Notes: generated from the sequence alone by a model not told the origin. Counted from the stretch's first letter, positions 18,049 through 36,389 are shown. The stretch is 64,000 nt of DNA from an uncultured Actinomycetes bacterium (GCA_963841735.1 CAWJDT010000005.1:128001-192000), one strand, 5' to 3'. Program-made: numbers and translations.

Positions 18049-18175
18049 GTTCATTCTCCACCTAGGTAGACGTGCCTGATGTTGATGCGCGTGACCGGCG
18101 AACCGGCAGCGCATCGCCCGAGTGGAGCATACCTCACATCACCGCTTTGTCCGCGTCGAAGCGCGGGTTCCATGC

Positions 18176-18265
18176 ACCTCACGCTAGCGCGTCAGCCGCG
18201 CCCGTTGGCCATGGTACTCCATGCGATAGACGACTCAGGAAGTCGGTTGCACTCGCTTGTTGGGC
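18176..18265 (-). mobile_element. attC site (last in array; R' degenerate)
   Basis: R'' GCCCAAC on minus strand (18259-18265); 41 bp (18184-18224) identical to the attC at 20909-20999; R' degenerated to GTGAGGT. Confidence 0.7.
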
Positions 18266-18302
18266 GTGCCCGAAACCATGCGCGCAGAAACAACGCCAAC
18301 GG

Positions 18303-18842
18303 CTACTCCCGCCAGTACTCGGGCCTGTTGATCGCATCGGCACACACCACCGCACCTCGCACAGATCCGATAGCTCCAGGAGTCAGAGCCTGAACCATCC
18401 ACGCACCGGCATCTTCTTCGGCAATCGGAAATGGAGCAGCGAAACCCAGATGTCCTGCTGGTTCGAATCCATGGCGCGGGTAGTACTCGGGGTGTCCGAG
18501 CACGAAGACCAAGTCGACTCCCGCTTCCGAAAGCACATGCAAACCTTGTTCAATCAACTTGCCACCAATCCCTCGCCGCTGAACATCGGGGACGACGGCC
18601 AGCGGGGCCAGCAGACTGACACTCACAGCCTCGGACGCCTCTGAGATCCGGGCGGCTGTAAACAGAATATGGCCCACGGCTCGCTCGCCCTCAAAGGCAA
18701 GCAGGGAGAGGAGCGGTGAAGCACTTGGATCGTTCAGTAGGTTGCTGACAAGATCAGCTTCGTCGTCCTCGCCGAAAGCCTCACGCTCGATCCGCAGCAC
18801 GTCCGACAGGTCTGACTCCGTAGCCGATGCGATTCTCACCAT
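18303..18842 (-). CDS. GNAT N-acetyltransferase (gene cassette)
   Basis: LAPLAVVPDVQRRGIGGKLI, VLGHPEYYPRHGF; flanked by attC sites. Confidence 0.9.
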   Translation of the reverse strand: MVRIASATESDLSDVLRIEREAFGEDDEADLVSNLLNDPSASPLLSLLAFEGERAVGHILFTAARISEASEAVSVSLLAPLAVVPDVQRRGIGGKLIEQGLHVLSEAGVDLVFVLGHPEYYPRHGFEPAGHLGFAAPFPIAEEDAGAWMVQALTPGAIGSVRGAVVCADAINRPEYWRE

Positions 18843-18873
18843 TCCTCCGATCTTCGCAACCCTTTGAGGCTAC

Positions 18874-18932
18874 GCCTAACGTCTCTGCCGGTCAGCGGCA
18901 GCCGCAGGCTGACTACTACTGGCTTGTTAGGC
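18874..18932 (-). mobile_element. attC site (59 bp)
   Basis: GCCTAAC ... GTTAGGC perfectly complementary ends around an imperfect internal palindrome; 7 nt after the hicA stop. Confidence 0.85.
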
Positions 18933-18939
18933 CGGACTT

Positions 18940-19164
18940 TCACAGAAGACTCAGGAACTCGTCAATGGTCAAATGGACATCGGCCGCAATCTTGCGCAAC
19001 AGCGTAGGAGAGATATCGCGACCTGCGTGGAAAGGAACAGTGGTGCAGCGACCATCAGGGTGTCGGAACTGCTTGTGCGAGCCGCGCTGCCTGACCTCGC
19101 CGAAACCGTGCGCCTCGAGTAGAGCGACGACCTGCCTAGGCTTGAGGACCGGCAGGGTACCCAA
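18940..19164 (-). CDS. hicA: HicA-family toxin
   Basis: GFGEVRQRGSHKQFRHPDGRCTTVPFH motif. Confidence 0.9.
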   Translation of the reverse strand: MGTLPVLKPRQVVALLEAHGFGEVRQRGSHKQFRHPDGRCTTVPFHAGRDISPTLLRKIAADVHLTIDEFLSLL

Positions 19165-19166
19165 GG

Positions 19167-19376
19167 TCAGGCAACCTGGACTGTCCGCACGTCGACGAAC
19201 TCCGACTCAAGCGTCGGCTGACCGTCTTCCAGCAGCATCTCGATTACCTCGCGCAGATTCTGCTGCAGTTCATCAATGTCGGAGCCTTGGGTGTGTGCGC
19301 CTGGCCACCCCGGAACATAACCGACGAAGACACCGGTCTCAGGGTCCCGTTCGACGACAAAACGATAGGAACGCAC
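19167..19376 (-). CDS. hicB: HicB-family antitoxin (short, no DNA-binding domain)
   Basis: FVGYVPGWPGAHTQGSDIDELQQNLREVIEM; GAGGAGG RBS before GTG at 19376. Confidence 0.88.
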   Translation of the reverse strand: MRSYRFVVERDPETGVFVGYVPGWPGAHTQGSDIDELQQNLREVIEMLLEDGQPTLESEFVDVRTVQVA

Positions 19377-19432
19377 GGGCTCACCTCCTCGATACAACCA
19401 TACGATAGCCTACATCGCCACGGACGGTATCG

Positions 19433-19493
19433 ACCTAACGTCGTAGCCGGTCAGCCGCAGCCGCAGGCTGACTGCTGCACTTCTAAGTTGAAG
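19433..19493 (-). mobile_element. attC site (~61 bp, R'' degenerate)
   Basis: R' GTTAGGT; core GCCGGTCAGC.GCAGCCGCAGGCTGACT shared with the 59-bp attC; R'' CTTCAAC. Confidence 0.75.
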
Positions 19494-19770
19494 TCACACA
19501 TCACCGTACCACCTCAGAAATGAAACGCGGTCATCGAGCGCTGCCGAAGCCCACCACAGGATCGGCCCCGCATACGGCCCCGCCGGCCAGCCGACGATCA
19601 CGGAGCCTTGGCCCTAGACGAGGCTGCGACTGAGGCACGGCCTGGGCCATGTTATTCGGCCACCACAGCCGCTCGCTGGAATCGGCCGAGACGATGACCA
19701 CCACCCTGTAGAAGAGAACGTCCTACTCAGAGGAAACGTTGCACTTCAAACTTGAAGTCAGGCAGTGGCC

Positions 19771-20790
19771 TCACTTCTCTCGCCACACGTAGTTGCCATC
19801 TAGGTCGATGTAGGCCATCTTCCCGTTCTCCTCTTCGACACGAACCAGTCCACCCCGGAAGTCCTGTGTGACCCTGAACTGCGTGGGAATAACCAGGGTG
19901 CCCGACTCGTCCATGAAGCCCCATGATCCCTCGGAGGTCTCCGGATCTTCGCCTGCCTCCAGCGCGGCTATGATCCCTCCACGGAGTACGGCCGCTCGTC
20001 CTTCCTTCAAGCCCATCACCTGGTCGTAGTCCAGTGTCTTGAGCACCCGTCCCGTCGTGTCGATGAGTTCGTACTTGAAGAAGTCGTACTCGACCACGGC
20101 GAGACCGTTGCTGAAAGGTGTGGCGCCATCGAATTGAGGCTTGATGACGTAGCCACCCTGCCGGTTTATGTAACCGTAACCGCCACCTGTCCGAACAGCG
20201 GCCAGACCTTCGCTGAAGTCGCCCACTGTAGTAGCCCACCGTAGTCGAATGACTACCTCACCCGACGTGTCTATGAAGCCATAACCTTCCTCCAGAAGCA
20301 CCCCGGCCAGACCCTCATGGAACTCGTAGGCCCCCTCGAACTCCGGTGGGATCACCACTTCACCGGTCTTGTCGATGTAGCCTATTCCTGAATCGGTGAC
20401 AAGTTGTGCTCGGCCGTCGAAGAAGGGGCCAACGTCCGCGAACTGGGGAGCGATCAACATCTTCCCCGACTCGTCGATGAACCCCCAGTCATCTCCTACC
20501 CTGACGGCCGCCACCCCATCAGAGAAATCCCAGGCTTCCTCGTACTGGAAGCCAAGGACCAAGCGACCGGTCTTGTCGATGAACCCCCATTTGCTACCCT
20601 GTCTCACGGGGAAGAGCGTGGGAAGCGTTGGTGCCGGGCCGGACCATTCTTCGATCGTTGCGTTCGTTACGCCTTGGATGGTGGTGTCCGTGAGTCTGCT
20701 GTCGCTATTCACGTTGTCGCAGGCCCCTAGCAAGCCAGCTGCAACGACTGTGATAACGATGACGACAAGCCATAGCAGGCGACTCTGCAC
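19771..20790 (-). CDS. WG-repeat lipoprotein (gene cassette)
   Basis: Lipobox LLGAC; repeated WGFIDxxG...FSEGLAAV units. Confidence 0.88.
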   Translation of the reverse strand: MQSRLLWLVVIVITVVAAGLLGACDNVNSDSRLTDTTIQGVTNATIEEWSGPAPTLPTLFPVRQGSKWGFIDKTGRLVLGFQYEEAWDFSDGVAAVRVGDDWGFIDESGKMLIAPQFADVGPFFDGRAQLVTDSGIGYIDKTGEVVIPPEFEGAYEFHEGLAGVLLEEGYGFIDTSGEVVIRLRWATTVGDFSEGLAAVRTGGGYGYINRQGGYVIKPQFDGATPFSNGLAVVEYDFFKYELIDTTGRVLKTLDYDQVMGLKEGRAAVLRGGIIAALEAGEDPETSEGSWGFMDESGTLVIPTQFRVTQDFRGGLVRVEEENGKMAYIDLDGNYVWREK

Positions 20791-20908
20791 TTGTTTCCCC
20801 CCTCTTCGGAGTGACGCCCAGCTCAAGCATCACCACGGACGCTGGCCCCTACGCTTGGGTTGCGACCAAACGCTATCCCGATGTTTGAAGTCCACGAAGC
20901 ACGCATCT

Positions 20909-20999
20909 GGCTAACGTTCTAGCGCGTCAGCCGCGCCCGTTGGCCATGGTACTCCATGCAACAGACAACGCCGGTGTCGGTTGCACGCACTTGTTAGAC
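20909..20999 (-). mobile_element. attC site (91 bp)
   Basis: R'' GTCTAAC, L'' with extrahelical G (CGT-G-CAACCG / CGGCTG-ACG), R' GTTAGCC; 8 nt after the upstream gene's stop. Confidence 0.85.
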
Positions 21000-21007
21000 A
21001 CGAAGCG

Positions 21008-21817
21008 TCAGCCACACAACTCACCAACCCTCACGACATCAAGCTGTGCTATCGACGAAAGCGCTCTCTTTGCCTTGCGAAAGACCTCTGCCTGGAACCT
21101 CTCCGTGACAACCGCCTCCATATAGGGCGCCGCCGCCATGATCCGAACGTCCGTAACGTCGCTTGCCTCATGAACCCGCCCCGGCTCACGAATACGATAG
21201 AACTGCGAATACAGCATAGCCTGCAGCGCAGGGAATCGGTTTATGTCCAGTGTGCTACCCGAGTTCAGGAGTCCCGCCGTCCAAGATTGGTGATTCTCGG
21301 CCAAGTGAACAACCACTGACTCGGCGACGTACTGGTCAGCTTTGCGACCGTCGTTCGAACGTGAGACCCACTCCCGGAGGGTGTCATTCTCATCGTCGCG
21401 CCACCCGGCCTCAAGCTCGATCATCCAGTCCTGCACAAAGAGCTTCTCTAGGAACGGCCGCAGGAAGTGCCTGTCTTCGGACCCAGCCAGAGTGAAGGCG
21501 TTGAGCAACGGAGGTCCAGCTGGATAGTGGTGATAGGCCGCCACCTCTGCCGCCACGATGCGCGAATATGGCTCAAGAAGGAAGCTCGGATACCTTGAGA
21601 AGAAGTCGAGCCAGGCATCGTATAGTCGTAGATGCTCTGGGGCACGACGCAATTCGATGACGTTGTAGATTGTCCAGCATGGCGCCCAATCACTTGGGGG
21701 AAACCGCTCGATGAAAGCGTGCCCAAAGGTGTCGCGATGCTCGACGATGTTGCTCAAGGCGTTTGTGTCGAGCAAGCACAGTCTGTACTCGGTGCCGCTG
21801 TCGCTCATCCACGACAT
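21008..21817 (-). CDS. Hypothetical protein with PIN-like motifs (first cassette)
   Basis: LLDTNALS near the N-terminus, ELR, DVTDVRI and VTER near the C-terminus. Confidence 0.55.
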   Translation of the reverse strand: MSWMSDSGTEYRLCLLDTNALSNIVEHRDTFGHAFIERFPPSDWAPCWTIYNVIELRRAPEHLRLYDAWLDFFSRYPSFLLEPYSRIVAAEVAAYHHYPAGPPLLNAFTLAGSEDRHFLRPFLEKLFVQDWMIELEAGWRDDENDTLREWVSRSNDGRKADQYVAESVVVHLAENHQSWTAGLLNSGSTLDINRFPALQAMLYSQFYRIREPGRVHEASDVTDVRIMAAAPYMEAVVTERFQAEVFRKAKRALSSIAQLDVVRVGELCG

Positions 21818-21844
21818 TCGCGCCGCGCGCCTCCCAGCGTCTGT

Positions 21845-21999
21845 GTCTAACAATGCTTATCCAGTCTGCCCAAATAGACCGACGAAGCACCAGGGTGTCT
21901 GCATAACTCCGGGTGCGAATCTCAAAACGGCCCCCCTGGTCGGCCTTCCGAGCGGTTTCTGAACCCAGGACGCCCGCTCGGTCTTGGGGTTATGCAGAC
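21845..21999 (-). mobile_element. Putative attI region
   Basis: Crossover ATT-G|TTAGACAC is the exact complement of the first cassette's R'' (GTGTCTAAC); no attC hairpin upstream; 11-bp inverted repeat GTCTGCATAAC at 21897-21907 and 21989-21999. Confidence 0.6.
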
Positions 22000-22029
22000 T
22001 TCCATGAGAAGCCGGCCGGTGTCAAGAGC

Positions 22030-22365
22030 GATTCTTGGGTTGCTTCTTCCTCCTCTGCTCGGTTTCTATCATCCCTCTTCCGCCGCGAAGAGCCAAGACC
22101 ACGGCCACGCTTCCATTCGCACTTTTTGTCGGGAACCTATGGCGGGACCCGGTGCACGTTGGGGTCCGGCCGGGGGAAGCGCTGCTATCTGTATAGCGGC
22201 CTTGGGGACGGCACCGGGTTGGTGTCGTTCTGTACGGCCGAGTCTGTGTGCGCAGTCGCTTTCACCCTGGGCGGTTGGTCTTTTTGCTGGTCTCCTGCGA
22301 TGGGTTCACCCGCCGGTCTTCCTTGGTTATCGATCCTTCCCGTCGGCATCTCTCATCTTCACCGC
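22030..22365 (-). ncRNA. Putative bridge/seek RNA region of the IS
   Basis: Non-coding 3' region containing TATACAG(AT), CAGACT and ATGGAAG, which match the target flanks and donor end. Confidence 0.55.
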
Positions 22366-22367
22366 TC

Positions 22368-23450
22368 CTAGGTGGTGGGCGCAGTCTCGCCGCGGAGCCG
22401 GACGTTGCGCAGTGGCTCGTAGACCTCACCGGTCCTCCAGAGGTGCAGGAGGAGCACCGAGAGCTTGCGGGCCACCGCCACTACCGCTCGCTTCTTGCCC
22501 CGCTTGCCGCCCTGCGCGGCCAAGGCAAGACCCCAACGCCTGAGATCCGAGTCCGGGCCGAAGGGCCCGAGGATGTAGTGGGCGGCGCTCACGAGGAGCC
22601 AGCGCAGGTGCTCGTCCCCGGCTTTGGTGATGCGCAGCTGAGGCTCCAGGGAACCGGAGCTTGCCTGCCGGGGCCTGAGGCCGAGATACGAGCCCACCGA
22701 GCGGCACTTGGGGAAGCGCTCGGGATCTTCCACGGTAAGGACATAGACTGTGGCCGTAAGCGTGCCCACGCCGGGCACCTGGGAGAGAAGCGCGGTCTCT
22801 GGGTAGCGCTCCTTGGCCATGTCTTCGATCTTCTGATCGAGAGCGCGGATCTCATCGGAGATGTTCTGGATGACGGTGAGGACCGGAGCCAGGGCGGGAG
22901 CAAGCTCCTCGGGGACACACGGCCCGGCCTTTTGGGCAAAGACGTCGCTCGCGCAGGTGGGCAGGCGGCTGCCCAAGGACTTCGTGCAGCCGCGGGCATG
23001 ACTGATCAGACGGGTGCGAGCCCTGACCAGGGCATTGCGACTGCGCACAAGCGCGAGGTCGGACTGGGTCTCGGCTCTCCGATGGGTGAGGGGGGCCAGC
23101 AGCTCCGGGTCCAGACGACCGACCCGGGCCAGGTACTCGGCGTCCACCCGGTCTGACTTCGAGTCGTTCTGGTAGATGAAGCGGAGCTTGCGGGGATTGG
23201 CCACGACAACGTCGTGTCCAAGTTCGGAAAGCAGACGGCTAACCCAGGGGGAGTGGGTGCCGGCCTCGATCACGATGCGTAGCGGATCCGCCCCGGAGAA
23301 GCGGCGACGCAAGGCTTCCGGCTTGGTCGTCACCCGGCCCTCCTCGGTCACCTCGCCCGCTTCGTCGAGCACACAGATCTGACAACAACGGTCGCTCAGA
23401 TCGAGACCCACGGTCACCTTCGCTTGCTCGGTGGTGCTAGCATCGCACAT
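22368..23450 (-). CDS. IS110-family DEDD transposase/recombinase
   Basis: VGLDLS, IEAG, KSDRVDA, VPGVG, YLGLRP..SSG...ITKAG, AVARKL. Confidence 0.95.
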   Translation of the reverse strand: MCDASTTEQAKVTVGLDLSDRCCQICVLDEAGEVTEEGRVTTKPEALRRRFSGADPLRIVIEAGTHSPWVSRLLSELGHDVVVANPRKLRFIYQNDSKSDRVDAEYLARVGRLDPELLAPLTHRRAETQSDLALVRSRNALVRARTRLISHARGCTKSLGSRLPTCASDVFAQKAGPCVPEELAPALAPVLTVIQNISDEIRALDQKIEDMAKERYPETALLSQVPGVGTLTATVYVLTVEDPERFPKCRSVGSYLGLRPRQASSGSLEPQLRITKAGDEHLRWLLVSAAHYILGPFGPDSDLRRWGLALAAQGGKRGKKRAVVAVARKLSVLLLHLWRTGEVYEPLRNVRLRGETAPTT

Positions 23451-23551
23451 GGCTGGCCTCCTTCATTTGGGCCCACGAGCCCGACTCTGATTGGGGACCT
23501 CACGGTACTCCGGGGGAGGTCGGCCTTCTCATCCCATCTGTATATGCAGCC

Positions 23552-23750
23552 CTACAGGTAGTCAAGCGGACTGCGCACTCCCTGGCCACCCCCCTGGCCA
23601 CCCGGGTTAGAACATGGACGTAGATCATGGTGGTGCGGATGTCGTACCCGGCCTCCAGCAGGTGGGTGGCGAAGGAATGCCGCAACGTGTGACAGCCGAC
23701 GTGCTTGACCACGCCGGCCCGGCTCACCGCCTCCTTCATCGCGCGCAGGT
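23552..23750 (-). pseudogene. intI: Integron integrase C-terminal remnant
   Basis: [25 protein letters not shown]|TMIYVHVL...GVRSPLD; the VQELLGHxDV segment is deleted and the 5' part is missing. Confidence 0.8.
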
Positions 23751-23783
23751 GATTTTGCGGCGGGAGAAGTCGAGGCCCTTTGG

Positions 23784-24152
23784 CTAGACCCCCCGCATCG
23801 ATTGCCGGTACAGCGCGACCTGCGATTCGGACATCTTCTCCACCCACATAACCAGCAGGGCCTTGAGGTCCTCGCTCTGGTCGGAGACCGGCCCGTCCCC
23901 AGCCTCAAGCCTATCCAGCACCTCGAACTCGAACGCTTCCGAGCCCAGCTCTGTCCAGTCCGCCTGAAGCTCCTTGTCTGGGTGTGAACCCAAATCGAGC
24001 TGGAACCTCTGGCGGTTCAGCATTCCTGGGAGATTGGGACTCGACCCGATCAGCGACTTCCCGGTCTGCGTGTTGCGCACGAGGTAGATGCCCGCGGGCT
24101 GCGGAGTCTCCTTGTACTCGCGGATGAGCGCTTTGCGGTCTATGCTTGTCAC
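23784..24152 (-). CDS. Small GIY-YIG-family protein
   Basis: AGIYLVRN...LIGSS.NL...NRQRFQL...LQADW...FEFEVL. Confidence 0.75.
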
Positions 24153-24189
24153 CAGTTCAGCTCCTGCTCGGTTGTGTTGGCGAGTGACC

Positions 24190-25182
24190 TCATGTGGCCA
24201 CCCCGGCATATATGCTTAGAATGCTATCCATTTCCGCGTTCACAGCCGCGTCTACCACCCGCCGCTCCTCGTCGGCCGCAAACCAGTCAAGGGCCCGGCG
24301 GATGCCATCCCGGAAGGGGATGGTGGCCCGAAAGCCGGGCACGAACTCCTTGATCTTGCTGTTGTCGAAAGCGACGCTCCACGTCTTGTCGCCCAACAGG
24401 CTCCCAGCCAGTTCCGGCACCACCTTCGCGATGAAATCGGAGGGGATGTGCACGATCTTCGCCTCGACCCCCAGCGCCTCGGCGATGCCCTGGTATATCT
24501 GATTCCAGGTGAGCACCTCGTCGGTGGTGATGTGAAACGCCTCGCCCAGCGCCCGCTCGTTGCCCAGCAGCCCCAAAAGCCCCTGCGCCAAGTCGTCGGC
24601 GTGCGTCACCACCCAGAGCGACGAGCCATCGCCATGAACTATGACCGGCAGGCCCCGCAACAGCCGGTCGGCCAGCGTGTAGGTGCCCCACCCCCCGAGT
24701 GCGATGGGGAGGTTGGCGCCGTAGGTCATCGAGGGACGGACGATGGTGGCGGGAAAGCCCTCTTCGCGGTACGCCTGCATGAGTCTCCTCTCGCAGGCGA
24801 TCTTGCCGCGGGCGTAATCCCAGAACGGGTTGCTCAGCGGCGTCGACTCAGTGATGAGGTAGTGGTCGGGCGGCTTCTGGTAAGCGGAGGCCGAGCTGAT
24901 GAAGACGTACTGCTTCACCCGCCCTCGAAAGAGGCTGAGGTCGCGCTCGATATCATCCGCGGTATAGGCGACCCAATCGACCACAACGTCAAAGTCCAGA
25001 CCCTGAAGAGCGGCGCGGACCTCCTCGGGGCGGTGTATGTCGGCGACCATGCTATGGCTGCCGGGCATATCCGCGATGCGCGCTCCGCGATTGAGCAGAT
25101 AGAGGTCGAGCCCTCTGGAGATCGCCATCCTGCTGGCCGCGGCGCTGATCATCCCAGTGCCGCCGATAAACAGAACCCTCAT
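24190..25182 (-). CDS. NAD-dependent epimerase/dehydratase (extended SDR)
   Basis: FIGGTGMIS, FISSASAY, YARGK. Confidence 0.9.
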   Translation of the reverse strand: MRVLFIGGTGMISAAASRMAISRGLDLYLLNRGARIADMPGSHSMVADIHRPEEVRAALQGLDFDVVVDWVAYTADDIERDLSLFRGRVKQYVFISSASAYQKPPDHYLITESTPLSNPFWDYARGKIACERRLMQAYREEGFPATIVRPSMTYGANLPIALGGWGTYTLADRLLRGLPVIVHGDGSSLWVVTHADDLAQGLLGLLGNERALGEAFHITTDEVLTWNQIYQGIAEALGVEAKIVHIPSDFIAKVVPELAGSLLGDKTWSVAFDNSKIKEFVPGFRATIPFRDGIRRALDWFAADEERRVVDAAVNAEMDSILSIYAGVAT

Positions 25183-25245
25183 GACCCGCGGCCCCTTTCG
25201 CTTGGCTGCCGAACAGGTAGGCTTCGCGCTCGTGTTGCGCCGCCG

Positions 25246-26121
25246 CTAGGCGGCGCCCAGCAACTCCACCATCGCCCGGATGTGGGCCGGGGACGTACCG
25301 CAGCAACCACCGAGCAGCCGCGCTCCTGCCTGCAGGCACTCACGCACCCCGGAGGCAAAATCGGCAGGCGACATTTCAAAGACCGTCTCACCGTCTACCA
25401 GCCTGGGCCTGCCCGCATTCGGCTGCGCTATGATCGGCAGAGAGGTGCCCTGCCGCATTTCGGTGACTATTCCGGCCATCTCCGCTGGGTCGAGGCTGCC
25501 GCAGTTGGTTCCCACCGCGCACGCTCCCGCTTCGGCGAGGGCCTGGGCACACTCCCGGGCTGTGTTGCCCATGACGGTCCGCCCCCCGTTCTTGAGCGTG
25601 CTGAAAGATATGCTTGCGATAACCGGCAGGTCGCAGGCTTCCTTGGAAGCTCGCACGGCACATAGGGCTTCGCGCAGATCGATCATGGTCTCGATGATCA
25701 GGCCGTCTACCCCACCCTCGGCCAGAATCGTGGCCTGCTGGACGAAGGTCGCGAAGGCTTCGTCCTCTGGAAGCTTGCCGTAAGGTTGCAGCATCTTGCC
25801 GGTGGAGCCCATGTCGCCCAGCACGTACTGGCCCTCGCCGGCCGCGGCCTTGGCGAGCCGGGCTCCGGCCAGATTGACCTCGCGCACCTCCACGCCCACT
25901 TTGTGGGAGCTGAGGTTGACGCCGTTCATGGTGAGGGTGTTGGTGATGAGCAGATGGATGCCGCAACCGGCGTACTGCTGGTGCACCGCCAGCACCGCAT
26001 CCGGATTGGTGACGTTGTTCTGGCCACCCATCTCCAGCCCGGCCTCTCCCAACTGGGTGCCCATGGCGCCGTCAAGAAAGATAGGCGTCTTGTCACTGGA
26101 AAGAAGCTCTAGCAGGTTCAT
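25246..26121 (-). CDS. Homocysteine S-methyltransferase domain protein (split MetH-type)
   Basis: LDGAMGT, GTNC, QPNAG, GGCCGT zinc motif. Confidence 0.9.
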   Translation of the reverse strand: MNLLELLSSDKTPIFLDGAMGTQLGEAGLEMGGQNNVTNPDAVLAVHQQYAGCGIHLLITNTLTMNGVNLSSHKVGVEVREVNLAGARLAKAAAGEGQYVLGDMGSTGKMLQPYGKLPEDEAFATFVQQATILAEGGVDGLIIETMIDLREALCAVRASKEACDLPVIASISFSTLKNGGRTVMGNTARECAQALAEAGACAVGTNCGSLDPAEMAGIVTEMRQGTSLPIIAQPNAGRPRLVDGETVFEMSPADFASGVRECLQAGARLLGGCCGTSPAHIRAMVELLGAA

Positions 26122-36196: not shown

Positions 36197-36389
36197 CCTT
36201 GTGAGCGGGCCTGCGGCCGGCTTGGCTTGGCCACATGTACTAGTCTACTTCGGCGAAATCTAGGCCTCTTGGACAAAGCCTGAGCCACCCTGCGTTGCTA
36301 TGCTCAGCCCAAGTTCGTCGGAAGGCCGAGAAGCGTACCGAGCCGGCACACGAGACCAACACCGGCACAGCAGGGGTGATGGGAAGATC

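Follow-up and report, generated by a model that had tools for sequence, protein, structure and literature searches.

An IS1111-group insertion sequence with a predicted guide RNA, inserted beside integron integrase genes at the edge of a probable attI platform

Several members of the IS1111 group of insertion sequences (IS), which belongs to the IS110 family, are known to find their targets with the help of a guide RNA. For ISKpn4 and ISPst6, a seekRNA has been demonstrated that comes from the non-coding region downstream of the transposase gene (PMC11187229). For ISEc11 and ISXne4, both natural and engineered retargeting are described (PMC11187229). In the order reported for IS1111 seekRNAs, the segment that matches the top strand of the target lies 5' of the segment that matches the bottom strand, the two overlapping at the insertion point (PMC11187229), and in many IS1111 RNAs the donor-binding bases are placed in a multi-loop (PMC11208160). 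One set of these elements, the IS1111-attC group, is reported to sit in the attC sites of integron cassettes, near the 5' end and antisense to the cassette array (PMC3001079; PMC11187229). Here, we describe an IS1111 element in a stretch of 64,000 nucleotides from an uncultured Actinomycetes bacterium (GCA_963841735.1 CAWJDT010000005.1:128001-192000; this whole stretch is called the window below). It lies directly behind the remnant of an integron integrase gene (intI). We put at about 0.78 the probability that this IS1111 element has a bridge (seek) RNA that guides it to a conserved motif by the intI stop codon, this motif being the first block of a probable attI platform. The mechanism is the known one of IS110-family elements guided by seekRNA or bridge RNA, unchanged; what appears to be new is the integron-linked target, and its relatives add clear natural examples of rewritten guides.

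On its sequence, the element is a member of the IS1111 group of the IS110 family, as had been proposed in an earlier reading made from the DNA of the window alone (the sequence-only reading); every sequence-level defining feature of the group is present. Its transposase carries the Pfam domains DEDD_Tnp_IS110 (PF01548, 63.9 bits) and Transposase_20 (PF02371, 67.4 bits), and scores 217.7 bits against the NCBIfam profile for IS110 family RNA-guided transposases (NF033542), for which the cut-off is 140. The C-terminal motif GL-P----S(T)G, which is a trait of IS1111 transposases (PMC11187229), appears here as GLRPRQASSG. The element also has subterminal repeats of about 11-13 bp, extensions of 7 bp and 3 bp, and a non-coding region downstream of the gene; within that region, the match to the top strand of the target lies 5' of the match to the bottom strand, and the two overlap at the insertion point. 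Among the 5000 best-scoring records of PLSDB, every match to the transposase is below 60% identity, the 25 top-ranked being at 33-37%, which makes a close kinship to plasmid-borne members unlikely.

The boundaries of the element were set by a paralogous empty site and by empty sites in relatives. Read on the minus strand, the left junction is ..tatac-AG-atggg-ATGAGAAG, with AG at 23539-23538, and the right junction is CTTCTCAT-gga-AG-tctgcataa, with AG at 22000-21999. The sequence-only reading had placed these junctions, and the three short motifs discussed below, exactly where they are. Comparison of occupied sites with paralogous and orthologous empty ones gives the extensions AGATGGG on the left and GGA on the right, a single AG when the site is empty, and no target duplication; the left end is, moreover, common to relatives that have other flanks. 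The parts then run in the order 7-bp extension, left repeat, 89-nt leader, 360-codon gene, 367-nt non-coding region, right repeat and 3-bp extension. The subterminal repeats, 12 nt on the left and 11 nt on the right, pair except for one additional G on the left. The stretch downstream of the transposase stop (22367..22001) is long compared to the 89 nt upstream of the gene; the earlier reading was correct that a 3' non-coding region exists, and its estimate of about 340 nt is corrected to 367 nt. The range that it gave, 21989-23545, spans both halves of the target, while the element by the IS1111 convention is 23539..22001.

The proposed mechanism can be stated as follows. The 3' non-coding region would encode a bridge (seek) RNA, transcribed and processed from the element, with two guide loops. 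In the first, an internal loop, one segment would pair with the top strand of the target (core AG and right flank) and the other with the bottom strand (left flank and core AG). In the second loop, equivalent segments would serve the element's own joined ends. By analogy with ISEc11, ISKpn4 and IS621, a complex of the DEDD transposase and this RNA would act at the AG core, recombining the target with a circularised element. The outcome would be an insertion in one orientation, without duplication, at a target about 15 bp past the stop codon of the integron integrase, in integrons where integrase and cassettes are co-directional.

The case for such a guide rests, to start with, on two short matches. 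The segments CAGACT and TATACAG each stand at the 3' end of one side of the internal loop (Table 1). When the 367-nt region was simulated 50,000 times under a first-order Markov model, a 6-mer match turned up in 6.6% of the simulated regions and a 7-mer match in 0.23%; only two of the 50,000 held both, correctly ordered and spaced by 20-100 nt.

These segments are part of a scaffold that the family shares. It is built from an outer stem, a 9-pair stem, the internal loop of about 11 nt per side, a short stem that closes a variable hairpin, and a second conserved stem with a conserved single-stranded segment on either side. A consensus fold of 31 homologous regions has 21 pairs, with 94.5% of cells paired and with 12 of the 21 pairs changing on both sides. 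Of 500 column shuffles, none came up to the observed value on four of five measures, and 3 did so on the fifth; as a second control, sliding the partners by 1-3 columns cut pairing to 25-42%. Folding the single sequence gives the same 11-by-11 internal loop, both sides unpaired, and the scaffold was detected in 33 related elements. The three segments that the sequence-only reading had taken for guides are found, in this way, in unpaired loops of a conserved and covarying scaffold, and not in paired, non-conserved RNA.

That reading had also suggested a search for covariation between guides and targets among homologs. Here, both target loops shift to fit the site of each relative. Among the 33 elements with the scaffold, which yield, for each loop, 26 distinct pairs of loop and flank, the 5'-side loop (T loop) finds its strictly best match in its own right flank in 17, and the 3'-side loop (B loop) in its own left flank in 12. 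When flanks were permuted among elements, the observed total was reached in 0 of 20,000 permutations for each loop (in an earlier pass with seven elements, in 1 of 5040 and 3 of 720), figures that overstate independence, because the relatives share ancestry, and that are not true probabilities. Across the family, the usual match of a loop to its own flank is 8-9 nt on the 5' side and 6-8 nt on the 3' side. Together with the joint occurrence in two of 50,000 simulations, this family-wide covariation answers the doubt, raised at the outset, that short matches might arise by chance.

Before 2024, IS1111 targets in folded structures, such as repetitive extragenic palindromic (REP) sequences and attC sites, were discussed as cases of structure recognition. 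It might be argued in the same spirit that the transposase recognises the hairpin at the target, or its sequence, by protein contacts alone, and that matches of only 6 and 7 nt are coincidental. Such a view must contend, however, with the joint chance given above, and with segments that fill exactly the variable loops of the scaffold and covary with flanks across the family. RNA guidance has, furthermore, been shown experimentally for members of the IS1111 group (PMC11187229). We regard coincidence as a very improbable explanation.

A donor-binding loop that mirrors the target loop also fits the pattern, with support that is weaker than that for the target loop. The candidate 3' segment, ATGGAAG, lies within a motif conserved in nearly all relatives, and the candidate 5' segment, CCCAAC, lies across the second stem from this motif. 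Where the fifth or sixth base of the left extension varies, complementary changes are seen, read by eye, in four of five variant lineages (L047/L058, L052/L068, L021 and L045, but not L059). In L045, the right extension is GGC, and the donor motif carries a matching change.

The source genome (2.82 Mb in 8 contigs, 89.7% complete) holds five copies of the element, differing by at most one substitution or a 1-nt difference in length. The element is intact and probably recently active. All five copies stand at the same point and in the same orientation, 15 bp past the stop of an integron integrase gene or its remnant (two are intact and three are remnants, the window's being among the latter). 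The left flank is the same at all five, the final intI codons and the stop being followed by ..CATATAC; the right flank, AGTCTGCATA.., is the same at four and differs once at the fifth. The comparison of flanks among copies, which had been proposed from the sequence of one copy, finds a single shared site and not unrelated surroundings.

The empty site predicted at the same time, with its single AG, has a natural paralogous version near position 392037 of contig C1. Here, the two halves are joined through a single AG with one difference per half: within the left half a C replaces a T, and the right half is altered at its far end. In relatives, four empty loci were found in three genomes (G020, G013, and two in G010), directly after intI stop codons, and two of the four match the target perfectly. 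A search of the whole genome for the target, allowing up to 3 mismatches, returned only the paralogous empty site and one site with 3 mismatches on contig C5. The latter, near 36223 and outside the window, does not adjoin an integrase, as judged by tblastn.

Five copies at one site could, in principle, have come from duplication of a larger segment holding intI, the element and the platform, gene conversion having homogenised the element, which would then only seem to be site-specific. In favour of this, the loci in the window and at 810 kb of C1 agree at 97% of positions along 2.8 kb, a stretch that takes in both the element and the first cassette. The other loci, however, differ in their hairpin interiors and first cassettes (first cassettes differ at three of the five occupied sites), and unoccupied versions of the site exist both in this genome and in three relatives. 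There is also a gap in identity, the element copies being near 100% identical while the platforms are 81-89% identical to the empty one (that on C6 aligns over 59 nt only). Outside this genome, an 89%-identical element occupies the equivalent site in an unrelated metagenome contig, and relatives with the same ends lie in very different flanks that match their own loops. Duplication is, on this evidence, a highly unlikely source of the pattern.

The relatives just mentioned were collected, with their flanks, from 19 loci in reference genomes and 39 in metagenome contigs, at 41-89% protein identity to the transposase. Those that have both ends on the contig share the ends of the window element. 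Metagenome contig L040 carries an element 90% identical in DNA and 89% in protein, placed directly after the 3' end of an intI gene. Its left half-site and 3'-side loop are as in the window element; its right half-site is changed, and its 5'-side loop has changed in step, to give an 8-nt match. The next relatives, at 78-85% (L041-L043, L066 and L080), have other flanks with no integrase alongside, and the loops of L041 and L043 are rewritten to fit those flanks. Of 36 other genomes of the same family, 13 hold related elements, and of 24 searched genomes of other families, none does; at the 13 related-genome loci examined, no intI was found beside the element. At L083, a weak tyrosine-recombinase match (24% identity) lies about 350 nt past the last stretch that matches the element. 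Another relative is present as seven copies (L006-L012) in one Acidobacteriota metagenome-assembled genome, where the ends are identical and the insertions fall within the loop of a palindrome that is repeated and REP-like; the flank is matched over 9 nt by the 5'-side loop, but poorly by the 3'-side loop.

What, then, is the target? Ten platforms could be aligned (five occupied, the paralogous empty one, and four from relatives), each following the 3' end of an intI gene. They share three conserved blocks, namely the right half of the target, its inverted repeat about 95 nt on, and a third that ends in GTT, where conservation stops. The platform adjoins intI, is conserved with related integrases and ends at the GTT where cassettes begin; by position and conservation it is probably attI, and would bind IntI and take part in recombination. 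The target is the first conserved block between the intI stop and this GTT, in agreement with the earlier placement at an attI-side inverted repeat rather than in attC. The insertion leaves the three blocks joined to the cassettes and displaces the integrase gene by 1.5 kb. The integrase remnant is itself recognisable from 69% identity over residues 376-440 (tblastn with an intact paralogue) and from a Pfam Phage_integrase fragment; the intact paralogue scores 486 bits against the integron integrase profile TIGR02249, where the cut-off is 265.

The first two blocks form the arms of a hairpin, which, folded as DNA on either strand, has a z of about -2.5. This hairpin might instead be an attC site, perhaps that of a first cassette without an open reading frame (ORF), and the element might then be another attC-targeting IS1111 like ISPa21, ISPst6 and ISKpn4. 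The insertion is indeed at the 5' end of an imperfect inverted repeat of about 105 bp with the ends ..ATAAC / GTTAT.., its interior unrelated among copies and its ends conserved, as in attC sites, and the position near the 5' end is the one reported for IS1111-attC elements (PMC3001079). This reading is weakened because conservation passes the second block, running about 50 bp beyond the GTTAT arm so that divergence begins only after the next GTT, because the 3' arm in G013 is barely complementary, and because none of the four attC-like sites in the window's cassettes holds the element or its target. The hairpin is, further, always the first thing after intI, and the genome-wide search described above found only the paralogous empty site and the one C5 site. 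Typical attC sites have a bulged architecture, whereas the terminal stem here is made of 11-14 perfect pairs without it. All five copies, and that in L040, lie between the intI stop and the platform, and none lies in a cassette attC. IS1111-attC elements, moreover, are reported to run antisense to the array (PMC3001079), but this one points in the same direction as the cassettes. Integrase remnant, transposase and cassette ORFs are all on the minus strand, a co-directional arrangement as is found in integrons of the "inverted integrase group" (PMC3575428). An attC identity for the target is, in our judgment, unlikely.

Against the preferred reading, that of a guide RNA directing the element to the first block of a probable attI, several observations have to be weighed. 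The window element is at the short end of the family, its T loop matching 6 contiguous nt (7 of 10 in register) and its B loop 7 nt. The T loops of L020 and L059 mismatch their own flanks, and the B loops of L006/L046 fit poorly; these may be decayed copies or copies with misplaced ends. The shared ancestry of the relatives, already noted, belongs on the same side, as does the likeness of the window and C1 810-kb loci, which may not be independent insertions. In the candidate donor loop, covariation was counted by eye; by that count, the last base of the left extension changes without any compensation, and the right-extension changes of the single-copy relatives L020 and L017 are unmatched in the donor motif. 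A search of Rfam 15 over 20500-25500 at a permissive threshold gave no match, which means that no curated family covers the predicted RNA, and a promoter scan found no sigma-70-like promoter in the inserted element. Finally, both the RNA and the circular form are predictions from sequence.

A perfect TTGACA lies at the right end, 17 nt ahead of the last base pairs of the element. It is kept in most relatives (CTTGAC is kept in five of seven aligned ones), and could act as the -35 element of a promoter that would form only in the circular copy. A hybrid outward promoter, made of this TTGACA and the flank, was also considered by eye; it is unconvincing, as the spacing yields a poor second hexamer.

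Table 1. Features of the element, its predicted guide RNA, and its surroundings (window positions, unless a contig is named)
Feature	Position	Strand	Description
Whole insertion sequence	22001..23539	-	1539 bp, IS1111 convention; one AG core copy counted within the left 7-bp extension
Left end	23521..23539	-	extension AGATGGG (23539-23533) and 12-nt left subterminal inverted repeat (23532-23521)
Transposase gene	22368..23450	-	360 aa, uninterrupted
Predicted bridge/seek RNA core	22104..22272	-	outer stem, 5' strand 22272-22270 and 3' strand 22106-22104
Target loop, 5' side ("T" guide)	22241..22250	-	10-nt variable; last 6 nt CAGACT (22246-22241) are the reverse complement of core and right flank
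Target loop, 3' side ("B" guide)	22189..22198	-	last 7 nt TATACAG (22195-22189) equal left flank and core
Candidate donor loop, 5' side	22158..22163	-	CCCAAC, complementary 5/6 (by eye) to left-extension positions 7-2
Candidate donor loop, 3' side	22110..22116	-	ATGGAAG, the element's last 5 nt and the AG core
Right end	22001..22025	-	TTGACA (22025-22020), 11-nt right subterminal inverted repeat (22014-22004), 3-bp extension GGA (22003-22001)
Left half of target, CATATAC	23540..23546	-	6 nt past the intI-remnant stop; identical at 5/5 occupied sites
Core AG and right half of target	21989..22000	-	first conserved platform block; 5' arm of the ~105-bp imperfect hairpin
Rest of platform	21849..21907	-	3' hairpin arm (21907-21896), spacer, third conserved block, GTT (21851-21849)
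Integron integrase remnant	23552..23746	-	last ~65 codons, internal deletion; stop TAG 23554-23552
Four-cassette array	18175..21848	-	attC-like sites ~21005-20910, 19495-19433, 18934-18874, 18260-18175 (partly by eye)
intI-3'-end/probable attI platforms of the genome	C1 ~809.6-810.6 kb, C6 ~31.6-32.5 kb, C1 ~392 kb, ~403.8 kb, ~1356 kb; window 23552-23746		

Six platforms of an intI 3' end and probable attI are present in the 2.8-Mb genome; intact integron integrase genes are found at only two, the other four being short remnants. The platform interior (21908-21988 in the window) occurs in at least three unrelated versions of similar length between the conserved inverted arms, and looks like a replaceable module. 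Four cassettes follow the platform in the window. They encode a 281-aa protein that belongs to no known family, a protein with WG repeats, a HicB-like protein paired with HicA, and a GNAT acetyltransferase; beyond the array comes an ordinary gene for an aldo/keto reductase. Cassettes 1 and 4 have attC-like sites that are 88% alike, and the last such site ends in GTGAGGT instead of a GTT box.

Public sequencing runs were compared as assembled contigs, which are uninformative on transcription, RNA ends and the circle. In contigs of runs X1, X3 and X18 that resemble the element at 90-99%, the 5'-side target loop has a base change at 22248 (and 22247); by our reading, this change would add one pair to the same right half-site. 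In a contig of X18, an RNA-library run whose library may contain DNA, the right end of the element is followed by the platform's 3' arm, and 98 nt of hairpin interior are passed over; roughly as many unaligned letters appear to lie between the two aligned parts.

A broader proposal can be built on these observations, to which we give even odds. Here, the element would belong to a lineage of IS1111 elements guided by bridge RNA and distinct from the group that targets attC. This lineage would have come to home to integrons as well, as a specialist for the attI edge nearest the integrase in "inverted integrase" integrons, filling every matching platform in a genome and cutting the integrase gene off from the cassette array. 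With such a lineage, the few mobile elements that home to recombination structures of integrons would reach beyond attC to the boundary of integrase and attI, here in little-studied integrons whose integrase points along the cassettes. If IntI binds the targeted block, the insertion picks out a part of attI that is conserved and so far uncharacterised. The separation of intI from attI by 1.5 kb could alter the expression or capture of cassettes. For work on RNA-guided recombinases, the relatives have an interest of their own. Close relatives, with transposases 78-89% identical, have naturally rewritten one or both guide loops, and the clade is thus a ready-made series of retargeted recombinase-RNA pairs, some of which differ mainly in their guide loops. 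The 33 natural variants of the scaffold, with their readable guide-target pairs, should be useful for working out the rules of IS1111-type guides.

Among known systems, the IS1111-attC group (ISPa21, ISPst6, ISKpn4 and ISPa25) is alike in homing to integron recombination structures, where its members enter one end of an inverted-repeat site at a fixed position and orientation (PMC11187229, PMC3001079). It differs, as far as the group is known by description, in that the window element lies between intI and the cassette crossover and is sense to the array. A literature search found no report of an IS110 or IS1111 element aimed at attI, the target of the IS1111-attC group having been compared by description; to the extent of that search, the suggestion in the sequence-only reading that this may be a new target class holds.

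ISEc11 and ISXne4, also of the IS1111 group, share with the window element the order of the matches and their overlap at the target, the 7-bp and 3-bp extensions, and the absence of duplication; in them too, the stem is conserved while guide bases differ among close relatives with different targets (PMC11187229). The window element has another target and another transposase lineage, and is known here from its sequence. The core of IS621, a member of the IS110 group, is CT. In IS621, as is proposed here, an RNA with two loops base-pairs with the two strands of target and of donor alike, around a 2-nt core, and works with a DEDD recombinase (PMC11208160). The RNA of IS621, however, lies upstream of the gene and its subterminal repeats are very short, whereas in the window element the predicted RNA lies downstream and the core is AG. 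The candidate donor segments of the window element are in a multi-loop closed by the outer stem, as in many IS1111 members (PMC11208160).

ISPa11 and IS4321/IS5075, IS1111 members that target REP sequences or the inverted repeats of the Tn21 family, likewise home to sequence that is repeated, conserved and probably neutral, which makes many copies per genome possible (PMC11187229). The target of the window element is instead tied to integron integrase genes. Lastly, the group IIC-attC introns are a further class of mobile element that has specialised in recombination sites of integrons (PMC3001079); they are retroelements, with attC as their target and an unrelated mechanism.

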